Source: a virus
Lineage: Duplodnaviria > Heunggongvirae > Uroviricota > Caudoviricetes
Direction: 5' to 3' (one strand)
Virus record (IMG/VR): IMGVR_UViG_2648501669_000017
DNA: 26,325 nucleotides
The notes beneath the pieces were generated by a model. The model ran no database searches and had not been told where the DNA came from. It saw only the letters and a list, made by a program, of their open reading frames with translations. The translations under genes were made by a program, and so were the position numbers. Positions 804 through 15,798 of the stretch are shown in pieces (the first letter of the stretch is position 1; each line of letters opens with the position of its first letter).

Positions 804-1141
804 TTTTTATGTGAGCAGAAGATATTCATCAGAAACGATTATGTAAATCATTTTATTTTGCCAACGGCCTCATTGTCGAAAGAAAAGAATACGCCCGTAT
901 TTCCTGAATGGATTGACTTTTTTATCCAACCACACTTCAGCGCACTGCGTTTAAAAAATGCCTCATTCTTATGCGGAATATCATCATTTCATCATGATGT
1001 CTTTGATGAGCGGTGAACACAATACACTTGCGCTGTCTCTTCAGGATGAATCCCCTGGTCTGGTGCCTGTGGGCTGATGTTGCAGCAAAGCTAAGGTCGC
1101 TTAAACGCTACTCAGTATTCACTTTTCAGAGGATGAAATTT

Positions 1142-4100
1142 ATGAACAGGACCAGTCCCTATTATTGTCGCCGCTCAGTACTTTCCTTATTGATATCTGC
1201 CTTGATATATGCCCCGCCCGGGATGGCTGCCTTCACTACTAATGTTATTGGTGTGGTAAACGATGAGACTGTAGATGGCAACCAAAAAGTGGATGAACGA
1301 GGTACAACAAATAACACTCATATTATCAACCATGGCCAGCAGAATGTTCATGGCGGGGTATCTAATGGAAGTCTTATTGAATCTGGTGGATATCAAGATA
1401 TAGGAAGTCATAACAATTTTGTGGGGCAGGCTAATAATACAACCATTAACGGTGGCAGACAGTCAATTCATGACGGGGGTATTTCCACAGGTACGACAAT
1501 CGAGAGTGGCAATCAGGACGTTTATAAAGGGGGTATCAGCAATGGAACGACAATTAAGGGCGGTGCTTCACGCGTAGAGGGAGGGAGTGCGAATGGAATA
1601 CTCATTGATGGTGGTAGCCAGATAGTAAAAGTTCAAGGGCATGCTGATGGTACAACGATAAATAAGTCTGGCTCTCAGGACGTAGTACAAGGAAGTCTGG
1701 CAACGAACACAACCATAAATGGTGGTCGACAGTATGTTGAACAGAGCACAGTAGAAACAACAACCATTAAAAATGGCGGTGAGCAAAGAGTATATGAGAG
1801 CCGTGCGCTGGACACGACGATTGAAGGCGGAACTCAGTCTCTGAATAGTAAGTCAACGGCAAAAAATACGCATATCTATTCTGGTGGCACGCAAATTGTT
1901 GATAACACCAGCACCTCGGATGTTATTGAAGTTTATTCTGGTGGCGTGCTTGATGTTAGTGGTGGTACGGCAACAAATGTTACCCAGCACGATGGTGCAA
2001 TTTTAAAAACTAACACTAACGGTACGACGGTGAGCGGTACGAATAGTGAAGGTGCATTCTCCATCCACAATCACGTGGCAGACAATGTGTTGCTGGAAAA
2101 CGGTGGTCATTTAGACATAAACGCATATGGTTCGGCAAACAAGACGATTATTAAAGATAAAGGAACAATGTCAGTTTTAACCAATGCTAAAGCTGATGCG
2201 ACCCGAATAGATAATGGCGGGGTTATGGATGTTGCAGGAAACGCGACAAATACCATAATTAATGGTGGCACACAGAATATTAATAATTATGGCATAGCCA
2301 CAGGCACCAATATCAACAGCGGAACGCAAAATATCAAAAGCGGCGGGAAAGCTGACACAACAATTATATCCTCCGGGAGCCGGCAGGTTGTTGAGAAAGA
2401 TGGTACGGCAATTGGCAGCAATATTAGCGCCGGAGGCTCGCTGATTGTCTATACCGGCGGTATTGCACATGGGGTTAACCAGGAGACGGGCAGTGCTTTA
2501 GTTGCCAACACGGGTGCAGGGACTGATATCGAAGGATACAACAAGCTCTCTCACTTCACTATTACCGGAGGGGAGGCTAATTATGTTGTGCTGGAAAATA
2601 CCGGCGAACTGACGGTAGTGGCTAAAACCTCGGCGAAAAATACTACCATTGATACTGGCGGTAAGCTGATTGTCCAGAAGGAGGCTAAAACAGATAGCAC
2701 CAGACTTAATAATGGCGGCGTTCTGGAGGTTCAGGACGGTGGTGAGGCTAAGCATGTTGAGCAACAATCCGGCGGCGCATTAATTGCTTCCACGACCTCC
2801 GGAACACTTATCGAAGGAACCAACAGTTATGGTGATGCTTTCTACATCAGGAATTCAGAAGCTAAAAATGTAGTGCTGGAAAACGCTGGCTCATTAACAG
2901 TCGTCACTGGTTCCCGCGCAGTTGACACGATTATTAATGCCAACGGCAAAATGGATGTTTATGGAAAAGATGTTGGCACTGTACTCAATAGTGCTGGCAC
3001 CCAAACAATATATGCCAGTGCCACTTCTGATAAAGCAAATATCAAAGGTGGCAAGCAAACGGTATATGGTTTAGCCACTGAAGCAAATATCGAAAGTGGT
3101 GAACAAATTGTTGATGGTGGGTCAACAGAGAAAACACACATCAATGGTGGCACGCAAACCGTTCAGAATTATGGTAAGGCAATCAATACCGATATCGTCT
3201 CTGGCCTACAACAAATTATGGCAAACGGGACAGCGGAAGGTTCCATTATTAATGGGGGTTCACAGGTAGTTAATGAGGGCGGTCTGGCTGAAAACTCGGT
3301 GCTTAATGACGGCGGCACACTCGATGTGCGGGAGAAAGGCAGCGCAACGGGGATACAGCAGAGTAGCCAGGGCGCTTTGGTTGCAACCACCAGGGCGACG
3401 CGGGTCACAGGAACACGCGCGGATGGCGTCGCGTTCAGCATCGAGCAGGGTGCGGCGAACAATATCCTGCTGGCAAATGGCGGCGTGTTAACCGTGGAGT
3501 CAGACACCTCTTCTGACAAAACACAGGTCAATATGGGCGGACGGGAGATCGTCAAAACAAAAGCCACTGCGACAGGCACGACGCTCACCGGCGGTGAACA
3601 AATTGTCGAGGGTGTGGCGAATGAGACAACAATTAACGACGGCGGAATACAAACAGTTTCAGCTAACGGAGAGGCAATAAAAACAAAGATCAATGAAGGC
3701 GGTACGCTGACAGTCAACGATAATGGCAAAGCGACAGATATCGTCCAGAACAGCGGTGCCGCTCTCCAGACGAGCACGGCTAACGGTATTGAAATCAGCG
3801 GTACTCACCAGTACGGTACTTTTTCCATTTCCGGCAATTTAGCGACCAATATGTTGCTGGAAAATGGCGGTAATTTATTGGTATTAGCAGGTACCGAAGC
3901 TCGCGACTCCACGGTTGGCAAGGGTGGGGCAATGCAAAACCTGGGTCAGGACTCCGCCACAAAGGTTAACTCTGGCGGGCAATATACCCTTGGGCGGTCA
4001 AAAGATGAGTTTCAGGCTCTGGCCCGGGCAGAAGATCTCCAGGTCGCTGGCGGTACGGCAATCGTCTACGCAGGTACGCTGGCGGATGCATCGGTCAGTG

Positions 4101-5722
4101 GCGCGACAGGAAGCCTGTCGTTAATGACGCCACGGGATAATGTTACGCCAGTTAAACTCGAAGGGGCGGTCCGGATTACCGATAGCGCGACATTGACTCT
4201 GGGAAATGGCGTCGATACCACGCTTGCCGACCTGACGGCTGCCAGCCGGGGCAGTGTCTGGCTTAACAGCAATAATTCCTGTGCAGGTACCAGCAACTGC
4301 GAATATAGAGTAAACAGTTTGCTACTCAACGACGGTGATGTTTATTTGTCAGCACAAACAGCAGCGCCTGCCACAACTAACGGTATCTACAATACGCTGA
4401 CAACCAATGAACTTTCCGGTAGCGGTAATTTCTACCTGCATACCAACGTTGCAGGCTCCCGGGGCGATCAACTGGTCGTCAACAACAACGCCACTGGTAA
4501 TTTTAAAATCTTTGTTCAGGATACCGGCGTCAGCCCACAGTCTGACGACGCGATGACGCTGGTGAAAACAGGGGGAGGGGATGCTTCGTTTACGCTGGGC
4601 AATACCGGCGGTTTCGTTGATCTTGGGACCTATGAGTATGTCCTGAAAAGTGACGGCAACAGCAACTGGAACCTGACCAATGATGTCAAACCCAACCCGG
4701 ACCCCATCCCAAATCCAAAGCCAGACCCAAAACCCGATCCAAAGCCAGACCCAAATCCAAAACCAGACCCTACTCCCGATCCAACGCCGACACCCGTTCC
4801 GGAGAAACGCATTACGCCTTCTACGGCAGCCGTACTCAATATGGCAGCAACATTACCGTTGGTATTTGATGCTGAGCTAAACAGTATTCGCGAGCGGTTG
4901 AACATAATGAAAGCGAGTCCACACAACAATAATGTCTGGGGGGCGACGTATAACACCCGTAATAATGTCACCACCGATGCGGGTGCCGGGTTTGAGCAGA
5001 CGCTGACCGGAATGACAGTGGGGATCGACAGCCGTAATGATATTCCTGAAGGAATTACCACGCTAGGCGCTTTTATGGGCTATTCCCATTCACATATCGG
5101 TTTTGATCGCGGAGGACATGGCAGTGTGGGCAGTTATTCTCTGGGCGGCTATGCCAGTTGGGAACATGAAAGTGGTTTCTATCTGGACGGTGTCGTGAAG
5201 CTGAACCGTTTTAAAAGTAACGTAGCAGGTAAAATGAGCAGCGGTGGAGCCGCCAATGGCAGTTACCACAGCAACGGGCTGGGCGGTCACATTGAAACCG
5301 GGATGCGATTTACCGATGGTAACTGGAACCTGACGCCGTATGCATCGTTAACGGGGTTCACCGCTGATAACCCCGAATATCATTTATCCAATGGCATGAA
5401 ATCGAAATCAGTCGATACCCGCAGTATATATCGTGAACTGGGCGCAACGCTGAGTTACAACATGCGTCTGGGGAACGGTATGGAAGTTGAGCCGTGGCTG
5501 AAGGCGGCTGTGCGCAAAGAATTTGTCGATGATAACCGGGTGAAAGTGAATAGTGACGGTAATTTCGTCAATTATTTGTCGGGCAGACGTGGAATATACC
5601 AGGCAGGTATTAAAGCCTCATTCAGCAGTACGTTAAGCGGGCATCTTGGGGTGGGGTATAGCCATAGTGCCGGTGTGGAATCCCCGTGGAACGCGGTAGC
5701 TGGTGTGAACTGGTCGTTCTGA
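1142..5722 (+). CDS. ypjA: Adhesin-like autotransporter (type Va): signal peptide, long repetitive beta-helical passenger domain, Pro-rich linker, C-terminal beta-barrel translocator
   Basis: ORF 1013-5722; ATG at 1142 sits 9 nt after AGAGGA and gives MNRTSPYYCRRSVLSLLISALIYAPPGMAAF (signal-peptide-like), total 1526 aa; iterative ~19-aa GG-x-Q/T-rich passenger repeats; PNPKPDPKPDP linker; C-terminal aromatic-rich barrel ending ...NWSF. Symbol assigned from length plus the adjacent invertase remnant and ssrA-att context, as recalled for E. coli K-12 ypjA. Confidence 0.8.
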   Translation: MNRTSPYYCRRSVLSLLISALIYAPPGMAAFTTNVIGVVNDETVDGNQKVDERGTTNNTHIINHGQQNVHGGVSNGSLIESGGYQDIGSHNNFVGQANNTTINGGRQSIHDGGISTGTTIESGNQDVYKGGISNGTTIKGGASRVEGGSANGILIDGGSQIVKVQGHADGTTINKSGSQDVVQGSLATNTTINGGRQYVEQSTVETTTIKNGGEQRVYESRALDTTIEGGTQSLNSKSTAKNTHIYSGGTQIVDNTSTSDVIEVYSGGVLDVSGGTATNVTQHDGAILKTNTNGTTVSGTNSEGAFSIHNHVADNVLLENGGHLDINAYGSANKTIIKDKGTMSVLTNAKADATRIDNGGVMDVAGNATNTIINGGTQNINNYGIATGTNINSGTQNIKSGGKADTTIISSGSRQVVEKDGTAIGSNISAGGSLIVYTGGIAHGVNQETGSALVANTGAGTDIEGYNKLSHFTITGGEANYVVLENTGELTVVAKTSAKNTTIDTGGKLIVQKEAKTDSTRLNNGGVLEVQDGGEAKHVEQQSGGALIASTTSGTLIEGTNSYGDAFYIRNSEAKNVVLENAGSLTVVTGSRAVDTIINANGKMDVYGKDVGTVLNSAGTQTIYASATSDKANIKGGKQTVYGLATEANIESGEQIVDGGSTEKTHINGGTQTVQNYGKAINTDIVSGLQQIMANGTAEGSIINGGSQVVNEGGLAENSVLNDGGTLDVREKGSATGIQQSSQGALVATTRATRVTGTRADGVAFSIEQGAANNILLANGGVLTVESDTSSDKTQVNMGGREIVKTKATATGTTLTGGEQIVEGVANETTINDGGIQTVSANGEAIKTKINEGGTLTVNDNGKATDIVQNSGAALQTSTANGIEISGTHQYGTFSISGNLATNMLLENGGNLLVLAGTEARDSTVGKGGAMQNLGQDSATKVNSGGQYTLGRSKDEFQALARAEDLQVAGGTAIVYAGTLADASVSGATGSLSLMTPRDNVTPVKLEGAVRITDSATLTLGNGVDTTLADLTAASRGSVWLNSNNSCAGTSNCEYRVNSLLLNDGDVYLSAQTAAPATTNGIYNTLTTNELSGSGNFYLHTNVAGSRGDQLVVNNNATGNFKIFVQDTGVSPQSDDAMTLVKTGGGDASFTLGNTGGFVDLGTYEYVLKSDGNSNWNLTNDVKPNPDPIPNPKPDPKPDPKPDPNPKPDPTPDPTPTPVPEKRITPSTAAVLNMAATLPLVFDAELNSIRERLNIMKASPHNNNVWGATYNTRNNVTTDAGAGFEQTLTGMTVGIDSRNDIPEGITTLGAFMGYSHSHIGFDRGGHGSVGSYSLGGYASWEHESGFYLDGVVKLNRFKSNVAGKMSSGGAANGSYHSNGLGGHIETGMRFTDGNWNLTPYASLTGFTADNPEYHLSNGMKSKSVDTRSIYRELGATLSYNMRLGNGMEVEPWLKAAVRKEFVDDNRVKVNSDGNFVNYLSGRRGIYQAGIKASFSSTLSGHLGVGYSHSAGVESPWNAVAGVNWSF
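4687..4800 (+). repeat. Proline-rich linker encoded by an imperfect tandem DNA repeat (CCAAAGCCAGACCCAAA-type units) inside the autotransporter gene
   Basis: Direct reading: ...cccaacccggaccccatcccaaatccaaagccagacccaaaacccgatccaaagccagacccaaatccaaaaccagaccc...; protein PNPDPIPNPKPDPKPDPKPDPNPKPDPTPDPTPTPVP. Confidence 0.8.
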
Positions 5723-5910: not shown

Positions 5911-6052
5911 TATGATTGAATTTATGTGTATGAAAAATAAAGTTTAATTTCTTCCTGCAATCTTTGCGTATCAAAAACGTGCACTTCGTCATTATTTTAT
6001 AGTAATTTATTTTGCTCATTTTTGACTAGACAGATTTGGCTGAGGTGTCGCC

Positions 6053-6976
6053 ATGGAACTGTTGATTTCCCCAAAAAGATTGTGCCTTTATAATGATTCT
6101 GATCGCCGTGTTACAGCTAAGTTTTTGAACTCAGTTGATAACACCCTTGCGAGAGCATCTGGACAAGTGGTTATAGACTTTTCGACAGTAGAATATGCAG
6201 GTGCTGCAGCTAGCGTAAGGTTGTTTGCTATCATCAGTAGGGCTTATTTTATGGCATTCGGCACAAGTAGTCTTCGATTTATTTGGCCGAAAAAAGAAAA
6301 TAATCCGTATGGGCATCGATATATTGTTGGGACGGGGTTATCGATTGCTCTAATGGCAAATACAGTTGATAAATTAGATGTTCTTACTAAGGAACGCAGG
6401 TACTTTCAGTCTGCTGTGGAACCGTATGAACATTGGGCTAAAACGATGGAATTTATTGATTCAAAAGCAATTCTCACATTTGAGCAATATCTTTTGGTCT
6501 CCTCAGCCCTTAGTGAGGCAATGCTGAATGTTTCATATCATGCATATGAACATCCAGACTTTGCTGGTGCTACAGAGCATATGCAAGGGAAACGATGGTG
6601 GCAGAGTTGTTGGTACAACCCTGACACAGACAAGGTTGTCTTTATTATTTATGATCTTGGGCTTGGCATACATAAATCATTTACTTCAGCCTCTCCGTTG
6701 TTTACTGGGTATGACGACGTGACATCTGTGTCAACAGCCCTGACAGGAGGACAGTCCAGATATGTTAACGCTGGACGTGGTAATGGTTCTGAGGATATAA
6801 AGAGACCTATAGGGTCTGGCTGTGCGAATTCAGAATCACTTTTGGTGTTCACAGGGAATGTTAAGTACAGCTATAATTCAAGAAATGAGGTTCCCAAATG
6901 CGAGTGGATACCTGAGTACATGCCGGGAACATTGATTGAATGGTCATTAGTTCCGAGGAGAGGAGAAGATGGTTAA
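6053..6976 (+). CDS. Hypothetical protein with STAS-like N-terminal region and GHKL/HATPase_c-like ATP-binding C-terminal region (anti-sigma-factor-kinase-like)
   Basis: ATG 6053 preceded by TGAGGTG; 307 aa; by-eye motifs EAMLNVSYHA (N-box E-x3-N-x3-HA, aa 155-164), DLGLG (G1, aa 201-205), GRGNGS (G2, aa 241-246), GSG (aa 254-256); N-terminal QVVIDFSTVEYAGAAASVRLF resembles STAS/anti-sigma-antagonist folds. Confidence 0.6.
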   Translation: MELLISPKRLCLYNDSDRRVTAKFLNSVDNTLARASGQVVIDFSTVEYAGAAASVRLFAIISRAYFMAFGTSSLRFIWPKKENNPYGHRYIVGTGLSIALMANTVDKLDVLTKERRYFQSAVEPYEHWAKTMEFIDSKAILTFEQYLLVSSALSEAMLNVSYHAYEHPDFAGATEHMQGKRWWQSCWYNPDTDKVVFIIYDLGLGIHKSFTSASPLFTGYDDVTSVSTALTGGQSRYVNAGRGNGSEDIKRPIGSGCANSESLLVFTGNVKYSYNSRNEVPKCEWIPEYMPGTLIEWSLVPRRGEDG

Positions 6977-7310
6977 CATCGTCATAGCAAGGGATTTCTC
7001 AAAGATGCCATTTGGAAGGTTCAAGTCTGACAGCCCGAACAGTGCTGAGCGTTTTCGTAAGGACTTTCTGGTTCCTGCATTAAAATCTGGTGAGCGTGAG
7101 GTTGTCGTAGATTTTACGGGTATAAATCATGGGATTGGTTCTTCGTTTCTAGAGGAGGCCTTTGGAGGGCTTGTTAGGAAGGAAGGTGTACCTAAGGCTG
7201 ACATTAAGGCAAAACTAATTATAAAAAGTGATTTGCCGTTCTATAAAGATCAAATTTTTAGATATATTGAAATGGCTAATCCAGAAAGGAAGCCTTTCCA
7301 AAGGAGTTGA
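6969..7310 (+). CDS. Small STAS-like protein (DUF4325-like), candidate partner of the upstream ATPase
   Basis: ATG 6969 overlaps the upstream stop (6974-6976) and follows AGGAGAGGAGAAG; 113 aa; EVVVDFTGINHGIGSSFLEEAF is paralogous in pattern to the N-terminal segment of ORF 6053-6976. Confidence 0.55.
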   Translation: MVNIVIARDFSKMPFGRFKSDSPNSAERFRKDFLVPALKSGEREVVVDFTGINHGIGSSFLEEAFGGLVRKEGVPKADIKAKLIIKSDLPFYKDQIFRYIEMANPERKPFQRS

Positions 7311-7311
7311 T

Positions 7312-7941
7312 TTGAACACCGTTGATATTAAGGACACCCTTGCAGGGGTGTCCACTTACGCATGGATGTTTAGTGTTGTGAGTATTATCTTAGTGTTTAT
7401 TGGATGGTTTGTTACTTACAATAATTCACTGAAGATTGCTACTCGCTCTGAATCTAAATCGATTATAGATGCGATTGCTAAAATTTTAAACGAAATATCG
7501 GATTTGTCTCTGGATTACTGGGTTAATAAGTCAACACCACCAGATTCTAATCCATTTAAGAAAAAAAGTTTTAAGAACTCTAATGGATTGCATACTCAGT
7601 CGGCGAAAATATATTTAACGGCAATTCATGGAAAAGCCATACAAATAAATAAATACATTAATCTTCTCGATGAGAGGGGGATAAAAATAACAATTTCGTA
7701 TTTTTCTAATATTATAGATGAAGCTACTATGGAATGTGAGAAATCATATTGTTTTAATAAGTCATATAGGGTTTTTCGCGCTCAGAATGTATCTAGTGCT
7801 TGTATCGATTTCATAATGCATTTATATGATTCTTTTCAAAAAAATCATCCTCCACGTAAGCCTGTATATGTATTGAAAACATTAAAACAATTGGATTGTT
7901 ACTTGGATAAATGGCATAATGAATTATGTGGGCGGCAATAA
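7312..7941 (+). CDS. Hypothetical membrane-anchored protein, AT-rich; start uncertain (TTG 7312 after AAGGAG, or ATG 7366)
   Basis: ORF 7228-7941; the GTG at 7228 would overlap the upstream gene by 83 nt; AAGGAG (7301-7306) + 5 nt + TTG 7312 sits directly after the upstream stop; single N-terminal hydrophobic helix MFSVVSIILVFIGWFVTY; Lys/Asn-rich, visibly low GC. Confidence 0.5.
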   Translation: MNTVDIKDTLAGVSTYAWMFSVVSIILVFIGWFVTYNNSLKIATRSESKSIIDAIAKILNEISDLSLDYWVNKSTPPDSNPFKKKSFKNSNGLHTQSAKIYLTAIHGKAIQINKYINLLDERGIKITISYFSNIIDEATMECEKSYCFNKSYRVFRAQNVSSACIDFIMHLYDSFQKNHPPRKPVYVLKTLKQLDCYLDKWHNELCGRQ

Positions 7942-7953: not shown

Positions 7954-9120
7954 TCATTGTATAATGTATTTGATGGAGCTTTTTCCGTCGTATTCTTTGA
8001 GATATCGACCATAGTGCCTGAAAAGCATCTCCGGCCCTTTATGCCCCATTTGAGCTGCAAGCCAAAACAGGTTTGCTCCTCGGCTGATATGGCTGGTGGC
8101 GAATGTATGCCTGGTTTGATATGGGTTTCTGTAACGAATACCTGCTTTTCGCAATGTTGGCACCCATGCTTTTTTCCTAATTGCATCAGCACTTGCCCAA
8201 GGCTTATTGGTCTTTGGATCTTCAAAGACAGTAGTATCCTTCATGAATGTAAATGGCTTCTGATTTATCAGCGCCAACATTGCCTCTTCTGTCAGTTCAA
8301 CTTTCCGAGTACCTGCTTTTGTCTTTGTCCCTTTGATAACACCGACAACACTTGCGCTCTGGACATAGGCAGTTTTTCCAACAAAGTCGATATCACGCCA
8401 TCGAAGGGCACATAATTCAGAACTACGCAGGCCTGTATGTATAGCGAACCGGAACAGATTTTCCCATTGTTTGTTTCCGGCTGCTGCTAGTAATGCATCA
8501 ACTTCTGCTGGTGATAGCGGATCAACTACGTAGCTGCTTTCTGCTTCTGACTTATCACTTTGGTAGCGCGAAGCTGTTACTAACGATACGGGGTTAATTT
8601 GAAGTACCCCATCGGTCACGGCTTCATCAAGTGCTGACCGCAGGAAAGATAACTGGTTGCGAATTGTTTTTAAGGTCGTTTTCTGATTTTGAATCCACGC
8701 TTTCAGGGTTGCTGGTGTTAATTCACTTGCAGGGCAAATGTGAAGTGAGGCTAACGCACTACGGCATTTTTTATAGCCACCAATCGTAGAGGGTGAAAGT
8801 TTTCTTGTTTCGCAGATTTCAAGATATTCGTCCAGGTACATCTTTACCGTTTTGCCTGCAGCAGCATTACCAAAAATTTTCAAACGAGCAGAACGGGGAA
8901 AATATTCTGCATAAATGAATGTTCCCCTTTCGATCTTATTATGGATTTCGCCGAGTGTACGCTCGGCGTATTTAATGTTCTTTGGTGTTACTTCCAGATT
9001 GGAAAGCGGCTCACGACATCTAACTCCTTTGTAGGTGAAAGTTATATTGATCGTTTCTCCCTGGCGGTGTTTCCTGATTGTTACGCCGCGCGGTAGTTTG
9101 AGCAGTTTTGTCTGGCCCAT
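7954..9120 (-). CDS. int: Phage integrase, tyrosine recombinase family with N-terminal arm-binding domain
   Basis: 388 aa; ATG at 9120 after GTGAGGT; C-terminal catalytic signature ...TRHTFATSHISRGANLFWLAAQMGHKGPEMLFRHYGRY (R...H-x-x-R...Y); N-terminal LPRGVTIRKHRQGETINITFTYKGVRCRE arm-type domain. Confidence 0.9.
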   Translation of the reverse strand: MGQTKLLKLPRGVTIRKHRQGETINITFTYKGVRCREPLSNLEVTPKNIKYAERTLGEIHNKIERGTFIYAEYFPRSARLKIFGNAAAGKTVKMYLDEYLEICETRKLSPSTIGGYKKCRSALASLHICPASELTPATLKAWIQNQKTTLKTIRNQLSFLRSALDEAVTDGVLQINPVSLVTASRYQSDKSEAESSYVVDPLSPAEVDALLAAAGNKQWENLFRFAIHTGLRSSELCALRWRDIDFVGKTAYVQSASVVGVIKGTKTKAGTRKVELTEEAMLALINQKPFTFMKDTTVFEDPKTNKPWASADAIRKKAWVPTLRKAGIRYRNPYQTRHTFATSHISRGANLFWLAAQMGHKGPEMLFRHYGRYLKEYDGKSSIKYIIQ

Positions 9121-9299
9121 TTTGCAACCTCACTAAGATCAATCCACCTCTCCTTAACGCCTTCAACCTTTAAAACCTGAACACCTTCACGCCAAACACC
9201 GCGCTGTACACGTTTGTTTATTGCTTCAGGAGTTTCGCCAGTTTCTTTGCAATAAGTTGAGATAGGAACACAATCGAGGTTCAGCATACGTTTCTCCAT
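9084..9299 (-). CDS. xis: Excisionase-like protein (Xis), overlapping the int start
   Basis: MEKRMLNLDCVPISTYCKETGETPEAINKRVQRGVWREGVQVLKVEGVKERWIDLSEVAKW; small winged-helix excisionase pattern; 3' end overlaps int 5' end by ~37 nt as in lambda. Confidence 0.65.
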
Positions 9300-9328
9300 T
9301 ATCCCGTCTGCACACGGGAGCAACATTA

Positions 9329-10195
9329 TTAACGAATAGTGTCGTTACTTTGAAGTACAGCAAATGCCATTAATACTTCTAAAGTATATCTTCTATAAAA
9401 TTTAACAAAACCAACATAGAAAACATAGACGAAGAAAAAGCTAAGCATTATTGAAAGTAAACTATAAAGATAATCACTATGAGTACATAATCGATAAATA
9501 AAGGTTGGAACTGATACCCAAAATGAAATTATAAAGATTAAACATATGTTTCTGCAAAAACCATATAATGCAACATAGTTTTGAATTTTTGTTTGATGTT
9601 GTTTTGAAAACTCATAAACATAATGATATGCCAATCTGAAGAGATCATCATCAAGTCCGTTTTTATCTTGTAATAATTGGCGATTTGTTATGAACTTTTT
9701 CTCATAACCTTCTTTGATCATTAACCATGTTGTATTAGCTAAATGAAATGGTAGAGATTGAGAATAACATAGTTTTTGTGTTGTAAAATCCCATAGTATT
9801 ATTGGGCATAATACGCATTTGATTATGCGATTCTTTATTTTTGTTTTTTTATCAGCGCTTCTCTCATCGCATGATGGGCTACAAATGCTTTCTGAGGTAT
9901 CTATCAATTTTTTAAATAGATATTTGGAAGGATATCCTAATTCTTTATTCATGTGTTTTTCGATAAAAAATGCTGACGTGATAGAAATAAAATGTCCAGC
10001 TATATAAGATATAATAACTATTGAAGCGTAGTTCAAAATGCCAAAGATTTGACTTTGACCTCTGAGCAATTCACTTAAGTCAATAACAATATCTAGATCG
10101 AATGTCAAACCACAGAAATACATTAATAGGATAAAAAAACCACCTGGTATTAAATATCCAAGAAAGTCATAGAATGAGAATGGATTTTGATTCAT
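9329..10195 (-). CDS. Hypothetical polytopic membrane protein (about 4 TM helices, two at each end), very AT-rich cargo gene
   Basis: ORF 9329-10219; the first in-frame ATG is at 10195 with GGAGAG 6 nt upstream; hydrophobic segments FLGYLIPGGFFILLMYFCGLTF, IFGILNYASIVIISYIAGHFISI, ICLIFIISFWVSVPTFIY, LYSLLSIMLSFFFVYVFYVGFV; no motif recognised. Confidence 0.6.
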   Translation of the reverse strand: MNQNPFSFYDFLGYLIPGGFFILLMYFCGLTFDLDIVIDLSELLRGQSQIFGILNYASIVIISYIAGHFISITSAFFIEKHMNKELGYPSKYLFKKLIDTSESICSPSCDERSADKKTKIKNRIIKCVLCPIILWDFTTQKLCYSQSLPFHLANTTWLMIKEGYEKKFITNRQLLQDKNGLDDDLFRLAYHYVYEFSKQHQTKIQNYVALYGFCRNICLIFIISFWVSVPTFIYRLCTHSDYLYSLLSIMLSFFFVYVFYVGFVKFYRRYTLEVLMAFAVLQSNDTIR

Positions 10196-10303
10196 TGTTG
10201 CTCTCCAATAATTGTTCAATTTGTAATATAACCTATATCTATATGTTAATAAATTACTTATATGTTCTTTTATGGCAGAGTTTGAATTCGTACGTGCTGA
10301 TTT

Positions 10304-10828
10304 TTACGACTCAGTTAACTCTTTAAAGCGTTCCATAAACATCCCATAGGTATGGCCTGGCGACAGTGGAATAACTTTGAACATCTCTGTTGCCGGGATA
10401 CCTTCCAGTACGGGCCAGAAAGAGCCATCATCAAGCCCGAGATCGCGGCGTTCGGTTGCCAGCATGATGAGATCGGCATATTTCACGGGCGTACTCATAA
10501 CCGGGGGTAACCCGTATTTCTCACGGATTACGGCGTCTATTTTTTCTTCCATCCGTTTATAGTCAGGAAGAAGGCGTTTCAGTGGAGCCGGGATATCCTG
10601 GCAATACGCTTCTGTTGCATCATGCATTAACGCTTCAAAAGCAAATTCCTGCGGTACCAGCTGGCTGCAAAGCACCGCATGTTGGGCGACGCTGTAGAAG
10701 TGTGAAAGATGGCCGGCAAAGCGACAGATATTTGAAAGGGAAACCGCGATATCGTTAATATCGATGTTGTCTTTATTTATCCTGTCATAATAAAAATGTT
10801 TCCCGGAAAAAGTTTTAATAAATGACAT
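10304..10828 (-). CDS. HD-domain phosphohydrolase, YfdR-like putative 5'-deoxynucleotidase
   Basis: ATG 10828 with GGAG 8 nt upstream (track start 10840 is GTG); H...HD metal-binding motifs (FYSVAQHAV, LMHDATEAY); size and motifs match my recollection of CPS-53 prophage YfdR. Confidence 0.7.
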   Translation of the reverse strand: MSFIKTFSGKHFYYDRINKDNIDINDIAVSLSNICRFAGHLSHFYSVAQHAVLCSQLVPQEFAFEALMHDATEAYCQDIPAPLKRLLPDYKRMEEKIDAVIREKYGLPPVMSTPVKYADLIMLATERRDLGLDDGSFWPVLEGIPATEMFKVIPLSPGHTYGMFMERFKELTES

Positions 10829-10956
10829 TTTATTCTCCACGTTATATGCGCTGCATCGCGCTGAATTTTGGTTAAAGAAAACCCTCGCCTTCAGGCGATT
10901 ATTGAGTCAATTACGTTTCCATAAATGCCCCCGCAGGGGCATTTGCAGTAATGAAA

Positions 10957-11781
10957 TCAGGCGGTGAAAGTCCCAATAAAGGTTTCTACTTTGCTGTCCT
11001 TGAATTTCTCAACAAGCAGATCACGAAATTCGTTAGCCATATCTTCCTGCACCGCTTCCAGCTGAATAATGCGCAGAACCAGTACAGGACGATCGCCAGT
11101 GATAATGCTGAGGCGTAATTTAAACGGACGTTCTTTCAGACCTTCAAACGGAACGCATTTAAACTCAAATGCCACTGGCATAATGTCTTTGGTCTTCGCT
11201 TCGACAGACTCCATCAGGGAGCGTTTGCCGCTGAAGTCATTATCTTCAAAATCAGCTGTCTGGTTTGCTTCAATCGTGATTTTACGGACCGCCGCAGCCG
11301 CTTTTGTTGCCTGAATGGTGTCACCATTAGCATCAAAGCCCACAAGATAGTCGGCCCAGTCTTCAATCCATTCTGCCAGTGACTTCTGGGAGTTACGCTC
11401 GCCGTTAACAGACAACAGAGCAGAGAACGGTGCTGTCTTTTTCAGTTTGAGTGTGGCGGTGTTATCTGCGTGACCTGGTTCATCAATAGTACCCAGGTTA
11501 AGCACACTGACGGCACGCATATTATCAGCATCGATAAAGCAGCGGGTGCCTTCATCTGCAAGATCTTTAGAATAACGGGTAAAGTCATCGATGCTGGCAG
11601 TGGAAAGCGCACCACGGAAACGGAAGCGATTTAAATTAAATTTTTCCAGATCATGAATGCGGAAATTCTCAGGCAATGCCACAGCATCGGCACCAATCTT
11701 ACTGATAATTTCATTAACACCCTGAGCAGAAATAAGGGCATGGATTTGATTAATTGCGGTTGCGTCTAAGTTCTGAGACAT
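10957..11781 (-). CDS. Conserved phage protein, YfdQ-like (DUF2303-type), 274 aa
   Basis: ATG 11781 with GAGGA 7 nt upstream; length and position upstream of the YfdR-like gene match the CPS-53 yfdP-yfdQ-yfdR arrangement as recalled; no catalytic motif identified. Confidence 0.6.
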
Positions 11782-11846
11782 AATAAGTCCTCACTATATA
11801 AAGATATTCAGTGATGAGATAAATAATCAGTTAATTAAGAACGATA

Positions 11847-14856: not shown

Positions 14857-15798
14857 ATGAGCACTAAATTAACCGGCTATGTATGGGATGGTTGCGCTGC
14901 GTCAGGCATGAAATTATCCAGCGTGGCAATTATGGCCCGCCTGGCTGATTTCAGTAATGACGAAGGTGTGTGCTGGCCATCAATTGAAACTATTGCCCGT
15001 CAGATTGGCGCGGGGATGAGTACCGTCAGAACGGCTATCGCACGGCTGGAAGCAGAAGGCTGGTTAACGCGTAAGGCGCGTCGCCAGGGTAACCGCAATG
15101 CGTCGAATGTTTATCAGCTTAACGTTGCGAAGCTTCAGGCAGTGGCATTTTCTCAACTGTCAGATTCTGACCCGTCAAAATCTGACGCATCAAAATCTGA
15201 CACGTCAAAATTTGATGCGTCGAAATCTGGCAAAAAAGCGGGTTTTCACCCGTCAGAATCTGGCGGGGATCCGTCAGTAAAATCAAAACATGATCCGTCA
15301 GATAAAAAACCTTCTCGTCCGGACGCTTCGCAACCGGACACGCAGACGGCTGAACAGGATTTTTTAACTCGCCATCCTGATGCGGTTGTATTCAGCCCTA
15401 AAAAGCGCCAGTGGGGAACGCAGGATGATTTGACCTGCGCACAGTGGCTCTGGAAAAAAATCATTGCCCTGTACGAGCAGGCCGCCGAATGTGACGGCGA
15501 GGTGGTTCGTCCCAAAGAACCGAACTGGACAGCCTGGGCAAACGAAATTCGCCTGATGTGTGTGCAGGATGGTCGTACTCACAAACAAATCTGCGAGATG
15601 TACAGCCGCGTCAGCCGCGATCCGTTCTGGTGCCGTAACGTGCTCAGCCCGTCGAAGCTGCGGGAAAAATGGGATGAGCTTTCCCTGCGCTTATCGCCGT
15701 CCATCAGCACATACACAGAAAAACGCGAAGACCCGTATTTCAAATCCAGTTACGACAACGTGGACTACAGCCAGATCCCGGCAGGATTCAGGGGGTGA
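14857..15798 (+). CDS. Replication initiation protein (lambda O-like: N-terminal HTH iteron-binding domain, internal repeat region, C-terminal replisome-organiser domain)
   Basis: 313 aa; ATG 14857 after AGAGG; N-terminal wHTH (SSVAIMARLADFSNDEGVCWPSIETIARQIGAGMSTVRTAIARLEAEGW); internal SKSDx peptide repeats encoded by DNA iterons; position after cro/cII. Confidence 0.8.
   Translation: MSTKLTGYVWDGCAASGMKLSSVAIMARLADFSNDEGVCWPSIETIARQIGAGMSTVRTAIARLEAEGWLTRKARRQGNRNASNVYQLNVAKLQAVAFSQLSDSDPSKSDASKSDTSKFDASKSGKKAGFHPSESGGDPSVKSKHDPSDKKPSRPDASQPDTQTAEQDFLTRHPDAVVFSPKKRQWGTQDDLTCAQWLWKKIIALYEQAAECDGEVVRPKEPNWTAWANEIRLMCVQDGRTHKQICEMYSRVSRDPFWCRNVLSPSKLREKWDELSLRLSPSISTYTEKREDPYFKSSYDNVDYSQIPAGFRG
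15161..15263. repeat. Putative phage origin of replication: about four 14-15-bp iterons (consensus GTCAAAATCTGAC, each an internal GTCA...TGAC inverted repeat) inside the O-like gene
   Basis: Direct reading: GTCAAAATCTGAC (15174), ATCAAAATCTGAC (15189), GTCAAAATTTGAT (15203), GTCGAAATCTGGC (15218), flanked by degenerate copies, followed by an A-rich stretch. Confidence 0.6.

Follow-up and report, generated by a model that had tools for sequence, protein, structure and literature searches.

What is a very AT-rich gene for a membrane protein doing between the excisionase gene and the early-left genes of a temperate phage? The question is raised by a stretch of 26,325 nucleotides from a virus of the class Caudoviricetes (IMG/VR record IMGVR_UViG_2648501669_000017; the whole of this stretch is called the window here), in which positions 9329–10195 of the minus strand encode a protein of 288 amino acids that is identical to WP_072015484.1. 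It is very likely that the gene is real, that its product is a membrane protein of the Csx27 superfamily, and that it is carried as swappable cargo of a prophage.

The open reading frame (ORF) runs from an ATG at 10195–10193 to a TAA at 9331–9329, and a Shine-Dalgarno sequence, GGAG (10206–10203), lies 7 nt before the ATG; an alternative TTG start would give 296 amino acids (aa), while RefSeq and all homologues use the ATG. Against enterobacterial alleles of 77–85% identity, the ratio of nonsynonymous to synonymous substitution rates (dN/dS) is 0.16–0.24, and the full-length frame (275–288 aa) is kept in all 11 enterobacterial alleles that were compared. The ORF is considered coding because of these dN/dS values and the existence of hundreds of full-length homologues, and the reading frame is, judging from the substitution pattern, under purifying selection. 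Frameshifted or two-ORF copies of the gene were also encountered (L163, 4001–4866; L136, about 5962–6722; L152, 6001–6833), which points to occasional decay despite the overall purifying selection.

The composition of the gene is clearly deviant: its GC content is 0.287 (0.218 at third codon positions, GC3), compared to 0.443 in int, 0.467 in xis, 0.458 in yfdR and 0.461 in yfdQ (GC3 of these four, 0.39–0.49) and 0.462 in the whole window. By our own arithmetic for 867 bp, this is about 10 binomial standard deviations under the window mean, and since GC3 deviates as well, the low GC is not merely an effect of amino acid composition. A first-pass annotation of the window, made from the DNA letters alone, had proposed an ORF of about 288 codons with a GC content visibly below that of its flanks, and both points hold at the coordinates that it gave. 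Low GC is also found in the enterobacterial alleles of the loci L105, L109, L119, L124, L128, L135 and L164 (0.28–0.33, at host GC contents of 50–57%), even where alleles are only 43–50% identical and synonymous divergence is saturated. Its retention across such diverged alleles suggests a persistent property of the family rather than the mark of one recent transfer.

Hydropathy analysis (Kyte-Doolittle) reveals hydrophobic stretches at residues ~13–35, 50–78, 207–238 and 241–267, which enclose a polar middle of 135 aa with 20 lysine or arginine residues. An AlphaFold model built on 49 diverse homologues is of high confidence and entirely helical (predicted local distance difference test, pLDDT, 88.6; predicted template modelling score, pTM, 0.87), and its helices coincide with the hydropathy segments. 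The two hydrophobic helices at each end and the soluble middle of ~130 aa described in the first-pass annotation thus agree with both analyses, and the topology prediction that it had recommended gives four transmembrane (TM) helices. All parts lie on the minus strand. TM helix 1 spans about aa 13–33 (10097–10159; model helix 8–32) and TM helix 2 about aa 50–77 (9965–10048); the central helical domain of ~135 aa follows (aa 78–212; 9560–9964). TM helices 3 and 4 (about aa 213–235 and 244–264; 9404–9559) are separated by a short loop, and a C-terminal juxtamembrane helix (9332–9403) ends the protein. TM helix 1 was placed by hydropathy and the model, as were TM helices 3 and 4, TM helix 2 and the central domain by these and the alignment, and the C-terminal helix by alignment and model. 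The protein would thus reside in the inner membrane, and its N-terminus, its C-terminus and the central domain are predicted to face the cytoplasm, according to the positive-inside rule.

An alignment of 49 diverse members (26–78% identity to the window protein) contains 16 invariant and 19 near-invariant positions, and the conserved positions fall into five motifs. The N-terminal motif, NPFSxYDFLGYxxPG (aa 4–18; invariant F6, D10, F11, Y14, P17 and G18), precedes TM helix 1. A second motif, Y-x-x-G-H...S...E, is located at the inner end of TM helix 2, which contains the invariant Y64, G67 and S74 as well as the near-invariant H68 and leads into E79; just past this helix, on the predicted cytoplasmic side, follows the motif Y88-P89-S90. 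The end of the central domain, running into TM helix 3, carries D-x-F-R-x-x-Y-H-Y-x-x-E...H-Q-x-K-x-Q-N-Y-V-A-L-Y-G-F-x-R, and the C-terminal helix after TM helix 4 carries K-F-Y-R-R-x-x-L-E-x-x-M-A, with K265 and E273 invariant. Invariant polar residues are D10, E79, N206, R215, K265 and E273, and near-invariant ones are H68, H191, E195, H200 and K203. On the predicted topology, all five motifs would be positioned at or near the cytoplasmic face of the membrane. The earlier statement that no conserved motif can be recognised has to be given up in view of the 16 invariant residues across 49 members and the homology of the family to Csx27.

This homology was found by profile comparison, as the first-pass annotation had advised. 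While no match to the window protein was obtained in Pfam and NCBIfam (E ≤ 0.01), and the only PHROGs match is phrog_12528, of unknown function, the PADLOC model for Csx27 matches residues 6–268 with an E-value of 2.3e-6 (26 bits). The same model matches 39 of the 49 family members (best 2e-10), and the independent NCBIfam model CAS_Csx27 (NF040557) matches 10 of them (best 4e-6); the window protein itself stays under the cutoff of the latter (65 bits) and gives no match at E ≤ 0.01. Because hydrophobic proteins can produce spurious profile matches, a reverse test was run. Metagenome contigs were scanned with a type VI-B repeat pattern, which provided 120 stretches, many of them with multi-copy arrays whose repeats are about 66 bp apart. 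Searching the 2022 ORFs of these stretches with a hidden Markov model (HMM) of the family retrieved five small ORFs (E 2e-9 to 6e-5); the four that were scanned (206–244 aa) score 113–209 bits on CAS_Csx27, well beyond the cutoff of 65, and three of the five adjoin ORFs of 1128–1131 aa that encode Cas13b (E ≤ 1e-224). Moreover, hhalign aligns the family with Csx27 at a probability of 96.2% (E 2.7e-9; A2 columns 170–263, from the central domain on). Shared motifs are F-S-x-Y-D/E-F...P-G at the N-terminus, Y/x-P-S after TM helix 2, D-x-F...Y-x-Y-x-x-E...K-x-Q-x-x-Y...F-x-R-N before TM helix 3 and Y-R...E after TM helix 4. That the window protein is a homologue of Csx27, and a stand-alone, enlarged member of its superfamily, is therefore well supported by sequence comparison.

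Csx27 of type VI-B1 (NF040557; Smargon et al., 2017) has the same four-TM framework along its whole length, but is only about 206–244 aa long, the central helical domain of the 288-aa window protein being ~45–80 residues longer. Whereas Csx27 adjoins cas13b and a CRISPR array, the gene of the window protein belongs to a prophage whose host has no type VI CRISPR: in the window there is no type VI-B repeat, even at 3 mismatches, no CRISPR-like array and no cas13b, the sole ORF above 1000 aa being an autotransporter gene. Owing to the longer central domain, the score under the curated cutoff and the lack of Cas13b or an array nearby, the protein is regarded as a homologue of Csx27 but not as a Csx27. 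The one known activity of Csx27, a lowering of Cas13b interference (10.1101/092577), has no obvious counterpart for the window protein, and an anti-CRISPR role by analogy with this repression was rejected, as the host lacks type VI systems and the homologues are mostly chromosomal. Csx28 of type VI-B2, a pore-forming membrane protein associated with Cas13b, provides a precedent for a depolarising CRISPR accessory effector; it combines one or two TM helices with a divergent HEPN domain (10.1101/092577), an architecture unlike that of the window protein, and no homology between the two was detected. A search of the PDB sequences with the family profile returned nothing significant (best E 0.09), nor did Foldseek with the model against BFVD at E ≤ 0.001.

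Although Csx27 has been known as a Cas13b modulator since 2017, no mechanism for it is given in the literature that was found, and no link between prophage four-TM cargo and Csx27 was found either, including in papers that name both Csx27 and prophage. The four-TM superfamily and the P2 cargo described below are each already catalogued separately; what is new is best described as a stand-alone, enlarged relative of Csx27 that occurs in prophages and defence islands instead of CRISPR loci.

Relatives of the protein are widespread. A word-indexed search returned 593, all labelled hypothetical, from Escherichia, Salmonella, Citrobacter, Klebsiella, Enterobacter, Cronobacter and others, and an exhaustive profile search of 1.84 billion cluster representatives (50% identity) returned 926 at E ≤ 1e-3, 204 of them at E ≤ 1e-30; most of the 150 matches listed of the 926 align near full length, with about 260–400 aa. 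No functional annotation was found for the protein or its homologues, in keeping with its earlier description as uncharacterised. At one genome per species, 80 loci were assembled, including Gammaproteobacteria, Bacteroidota, Bacillota, Chloroflexota, Acidobacteriota, Gemmatimonadota and Spirochaetota, and across these many phyla the family is mostly chromosomal and non-phage. Among GenBank phages, megablast found no match for the gene and tblastn only 9 records; IMG/VR holds a homologue in 77 viral loci.

The element that carries the gene is a CPS-53/KplE1-like lambdoid prophage of E. coli. In an almost identical E. coli locus, RefSeq lists an integrase, an excisionase-like protein of 68 aa, the 288-aa gene, yfdR, yfdQ, yfdP and a LexA/cI-type repressor, after which the rightward early genes come. 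Directly downstream of the gene in the window, and co-directional with it on the minus strand, lies xis (9081–9287; phrog_2917 excisionase, E 8e-45; RefSeq coding sequence), then the tyrosine integrase gene (7954–9120; RefSeq "site-specific integrase"); on the other side, also on the minus strand, the yfdR-type gene for an HD-domain 5'-deoxynucleotidase (10304–10840; Pfam YfdR-like, phrog_318, RefSeq) is the last conserved early-left gene before the cargo. The prophage of locus L002 is 97% identical to the window in int/xis and 98% in yfdR/yfdQ, and a blastn comparison of window positions 8700–11800 with it finds homology only over 8700–9318 (97.1%) and 10309–11800 (98.0%); the slot in between holds 610 bp there, with a 71-aa gene and a yfdS-like gene. 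These breaks indicate that the gene belongs to an exchangeable cassette of 990 bp (9319–10308) that takes the place of other small genes in this variable slot. K-12 is one of many strains in which yfdR overlaps yfdS, with yfdT and the excisionase gene torI coming next.

The genome counts give the same picture. The yfdR–yfdQ module is present in 3012 of 5426 complete E. coli genomes, while at least 80% of the int-to-yfdQ query (8700–11800) is covered in only 201; among the matches listed, homology mostly ends at ~10309–10319, within a few bases of the yfdR stop codon. The gene itself occurs in 205 of the 5426 genomes, with 176 copies at least 99% identical and 24 at 80–90%, and its carriers include UTI89, S88 and avian pathogenic strains. 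A dusA-integrated prophage has the same cassette, with the gene frameshifted, next to another kind of excision module. No inverted repeats or convincing junction repeats surround the cassette. The gene is thus swappable prophage cargo of foreign composition.

A moron, in the sense of Hendrix and Juhala, is additional DNA of deviant composition that separates two genes which are neighbours in related phages, and that has a promoter and a terminator of its own. The first-pass annotation had suggested that the gene is a horizontally acquired moron, inserted between xis and the early-left genes and preceded by an AT-rich, promoter-like region. Its place in a replaceable cassette with the breaks given above, its deviant composition and the variable cargo slot agree with this suggestion; the cassette, however, replaces small genes and is not a simple insertion. 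The upstream spacer (10196–10303, minus strand; 108 nt, part of the cassette) is indeed AT-rich, with a GC content of 0.269, but a sigma-70 consensus scan found no promoter-like site in it, a crude scan that AT-rich promoters can escape; reading it by eye revealed only poorly spaced hexamers. Consensus scans also found no terminator-like site on the strand of the gene between yfdR and the gene, nor on the minus strand between its stop codon (9329) and xis (9287). Neither of these two defining parts of a classical moron was thus detected. The spacer is not distinctive in length, since those between neighbouring early-left genes measure 65 to 116 nt; it is ~80% conserved upstream of alleles of 85% identity and differs in other prophage backbones. 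Rfam gave no match in the whole window. Upon induction, read-through of the early-left operon could provide expression; alternatively, the AT-rich spacer may contain a promoter that was not recognised.

Homologues also occur in other phages. In several unrelated prophage backbones, which differ in their integrases and upstream genes, the homologue is the last gene before xis–int, located at the end of the prophage, and the same applies to Klebsiella phage P7641. In P2-like Escherichia phages, a homologue of 42–43% identity lies between gpA (replication) and gpQ (portal), a locus that is a hotspot of anti-phage systems and holds old and tin in P2 (Rousset et al., PMC9122126). This homologue is protein 2 of "System #3" (Rousset et al., 2022, Table S5B; 1102 occurrences), which is the third commonest cargo of the hotspot. 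The P2 protein (280 aa) has the same motifs and matches the window protein at this identity over its full length. Both are cargo in variable prophage slots and both are uncharacterised, but the slots differ: gpA–gpQ of a P2-like phage in one case, yfdR–xis of a lambdoid CPS-53-like prophage in the other. Furthermore, the P2 protein has a partner, a DUF4760 protein of 165 aa with a single TM helix, and the pair is found in 289 of the 5426 complete E. coli genomes, whereas the window and the lambdoid and chromosomal loci that were searched lack this partner. A DUF4760 partner there was excluded by jackhmmer against all ORFs of the window and 165 loci, which matched P2-like loci only. DUF4760 is not mentioned in the main text of Rousset et al., and essentially no study of it was found in the literature. 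It was also considered whether the systems "HP + 4TMs" and "RexA + 4TM", which the same authors did test, contain the same protein; this was rejected, their sequences being unrelated. For Escherichia phage vB_EcoM-705R2 (ON470623), GenBank leaves uncalled the DUF4760 ORF (L164, 4458–4958, plus strand) that partners the four-TM homologue, and annotates small opposite-strand ORFs instead.

A conserved partner gene was looked for and dismissed: when the neighbours at the 80 loci, one per species, were clustered all against all, the largest cluster reached only 4 loci. Neighbours are mostly co-directional (66 of 71 upstream, 54 of 74 downstream) and comprise a mix of housekeeping genes, mobile-element genes (integrases, RecT, Mu-like and filamentous-phage proteins) and defence genes, the last including type I restriction-modification subunits, MADS components, AbiEii-like ATPases, MvaI/BcnI, DNA methylases, an HNH nuclease, Shedu, a CHAT protein and an RmrA-like protein. 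A compact defence island is present in Flavobacterium sp. SUN046 (L051, 7995–12691): behind the homologue, and on its strand, come first a complete CBASS operon with a cyclase (E 7e-98) and a patatin-like phospholipase as effector (E 2e-113), and next PD-Lambda-1 (E 9e-193). A role of the homologue as membrane effector of that operon was discarded, as the operon has its own patatin effector. In Serratia proteamaculans (L005, 8917–10005), a 363-aa gene lies directly downstream of the homologue, on the same strand and after a gap of 37 nt, and the N-terminus of its product matches models of HNH and CBASS-type endonuclease effectors and PDC-M68A; this protein may be a local partner of the homologue.

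What the protein does is best guessed from these associations, that is, the P2 hotspot, the chromosomal defence islands and the int-proximal prophage slots. They suggest, tentatively and at somewhat less than even confidence, a role in phage exclusion or abortive infection at the level of the membrane, in line with the superinfection-exclusion or abortive-infection factors that the first-pass annotation had in mind. Cargo of such hotspots has a high prior of being defensive; in a 2026 survey, six of eight randomly picked unknown loci from the P4 hotspot were protective (PMC13586616). The gene would then be a prophage conflict gene that limits infection by other phages at the cytoplasmic membrane. 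Its four-helix bundle, probably as an oligomer, might block incoming DNA, or it might open or perturb the membrane and thereby abort the infection, and the cytoplasmic helical domain would control this action. The conserved polar residues listed above cluster at the predicted cytoplasmic face, and this cluster could be the place where a signal from inside the cell is read.

Several points weigh against an exclusion or abortive-infection role. The membrane topology is a prediction from the positive-inside rule, no match to a pore or channel fold was found, and the only functional datum comes from Csx27 itself, whose lowering of Cas13b interference is not obviously a defence effector activity (10.1101/092577). 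A defence role needs expression in the lysogen, while a promoter and terminator belonging to the gene were not detected. Many of the chromosomal homologues have ordinary housekeeping genes as neighbours. The P2 homologue is not among the tested systems of Rousset et al., in whose table neither DUF4760 nor the sequence motifs appear. PADLOC 2.0 gave no match of the protein to a validated defence model: its only matches are Csx27 and tm_4, both associated with CRISPR VI-B, and a few family members match the candidates PDC-M48A and PDC-S47 weakly (E about 1e-3). Finally, the dense set of invariant histidine, glutamate, aspartate and arginine residues would fit an enzyme equally well.

Following this last point, the protein could be embedded in the membrane as an enzyme or transporter and either alter the envelope (lysogenic conversion) or act on a small molecule, with the polar cluster being catalytic or metal-binding. 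Many of the 16 invariant and 19 near-invariant positions are His, Glu, Asp, Asn, Arg, Lys or Tyr, and a conserved polar set at the predicted interface of membrane and cytoplasm would be expected of an active site rather than of a simple pore former; moreover, some chromosomal neighbours are glycosyltransferases, epimerases and sugar transferases. However, there are few such polysaccharide genes, and variable regions typically contain them; the neighbours represent no consistent pathway, the largest neighbour cluster covering 4 of 80 loci, and no similarity in sequence or fold to a known enzyme or transporter was found, so that only a low probability is given to an enzymatic or transport function. 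A lytic-cycle accessory gene is also improbable. Such a gene would be transcribed only together with the early-left operon (yfdP-yfdQ-yfdR-gene-xis-int) after induction, and its product would act on the host membrane, affecting closure to DNA entry, physiology or timing, while the lysogen would be left unprotected. Its orientation along with the early-left genes and xis–int, the lack of a predicted upstream terminator and spacer promoter, and the recurrence of the homologue as last gene before xis–int in other backbones are what one would expect of it; but the gene is dispensable (among ~3000 E. coli genomes with yfdR/yfdQ, only 201 cover int to yfdQ with the gene), the family is mostly chromosomal and non-phage across many phyla, and another of its sites is the P2 hotspot, where the known genes, old and tin, act from the prophage (PMC9122126).

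The homology to Csx27 itself raises another prospect, which is quite unlikely: the prophage protein might form or plug a conduit for single-stranded (ss) or double-stranded DNA in the inner membrane. Makarova, Gao, Zhang and Koonin reportedly proposed in 2019 that the Csx27 family is a component of a DNA-uptake or DNA-degradation channel. Since E. coli does not, in the usual sense, take up DNA by natural transformation, the present host counts against a channel of this kind. As far as the hypothesis is summarised in the relevant passages of PMC7642515, PMC8209922 and PMC11662929, Csx27 belongs to an expansive four-TM family that was proposed to form ssDNA channels and is linked to natural-transformation genes, ubiquitin-system proteins, WYL regulators and a DNA-modification system; in these passages, it is presented as a hypothesis without an experimental test. 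Against the proposal also stands that no natural-transformation, ubiquitin-fusion or WYL-HTH family appears among the 25 commonest Pfam families in each list of ±1 and ±2 neighbours at the 80 loci. It is very improbable, in turn, that the gene is a decaying or neutral passenger without a current function in E. coli. The very low GC, the patchy distribution and the occasional frameshifted or split copies (L163, L136 and L152) might suggest so, but the low dN/dS, the intact frame in 11 of 11 enterobacterial alleles, the near-identity of 176 of 205 E. coli copies (at least 99%) and the conservation of the motifs across phyla argue against it.

Taken one step further, a role in phage exclusion leads to a wider proposal, which is unlikely on present evidence but not negligible: stand-alone proteins of the Csx27 superfamily might constitute a widespread, unrecognised single-gene anti-phage system, of which type VI-B1 loci recruited one member as Csx27. 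The system would consist of a cytoplasm-sensing four-helix effector that is carried in lambdoid and P2-like prophages and in defence islands of many phyla. Provided that the lambdoid and the P2-like alleles are found in different genomes, carriage of either would amount to ~9% of E. coli genomes. If this were true, the E. coli prophage gene would show what Csx27 actually does. A member of the superfamily in studied strains, such as UTI89 and S88, is a tractable model, and the finding joins the Csx27 family, the untested third-commonest P2 hotspot cargo and a recurrent lambdoid cargo adjacent to xis–int. Phage exclusion by the protein would represent a common single-gene membrane system in pathogenic E. 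coli, with a bearing on host range in phage therapy, while a different function would correct the assumption that hotspot cargo is defensive.

Known exclusion proteins offer a comparison. SieA of P22, SieB of lambda and P22, Imm of T4, gp15 of HK97 and RexB are small to medium-sized, polytopic inner-membrane proteins encoded by accessory genes of temperate phages, and they are proposed to act at the membrane, as is the window protein. None of them was matched by the window protein in PADLOC, Pfam or PHROGs, and its family differs from them in being distributed over many phyla and mostly chromosomal.

Elsewhere in the window, a cluster of three genes on the plus strand (6053–7941) separates the autotransporter gene from int and occupies the att side of the latter. 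It encodes a 307-aa protein (phrog_3364, unknown function), a 113-aa STAS-like DUF4325 protein (Pfam, E 8e-15) and a 209-aa protein of low GC (0.32) with an N-terminal hydrophobic helix and a weak PADLOC match to "2TM effector". UTI89 has a diverged trio at the same place, and prophages with ~95% identical integrases have genes for 594 and 299 aa instead. The region looks like a second cargo slot, with a possible uncharacterised system. The autotransporter gene itself (1013–5722, plus strand) encodes an adhesin of 1569 aa of the AIDA-I/Antigen 43 type (PDB sequence matches down to E 1e-33), contains short tandem repeats at 4708–4788 and probably marks a chromosomal or island flank outside the prophage. 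At 15166–15229, within the ORF 14857–15798, four tandem units of 15 bp (TCTGACACGTCAAAA) resemble iterons of a lambdoid origin of replication, which would here be located in an O-like gene.

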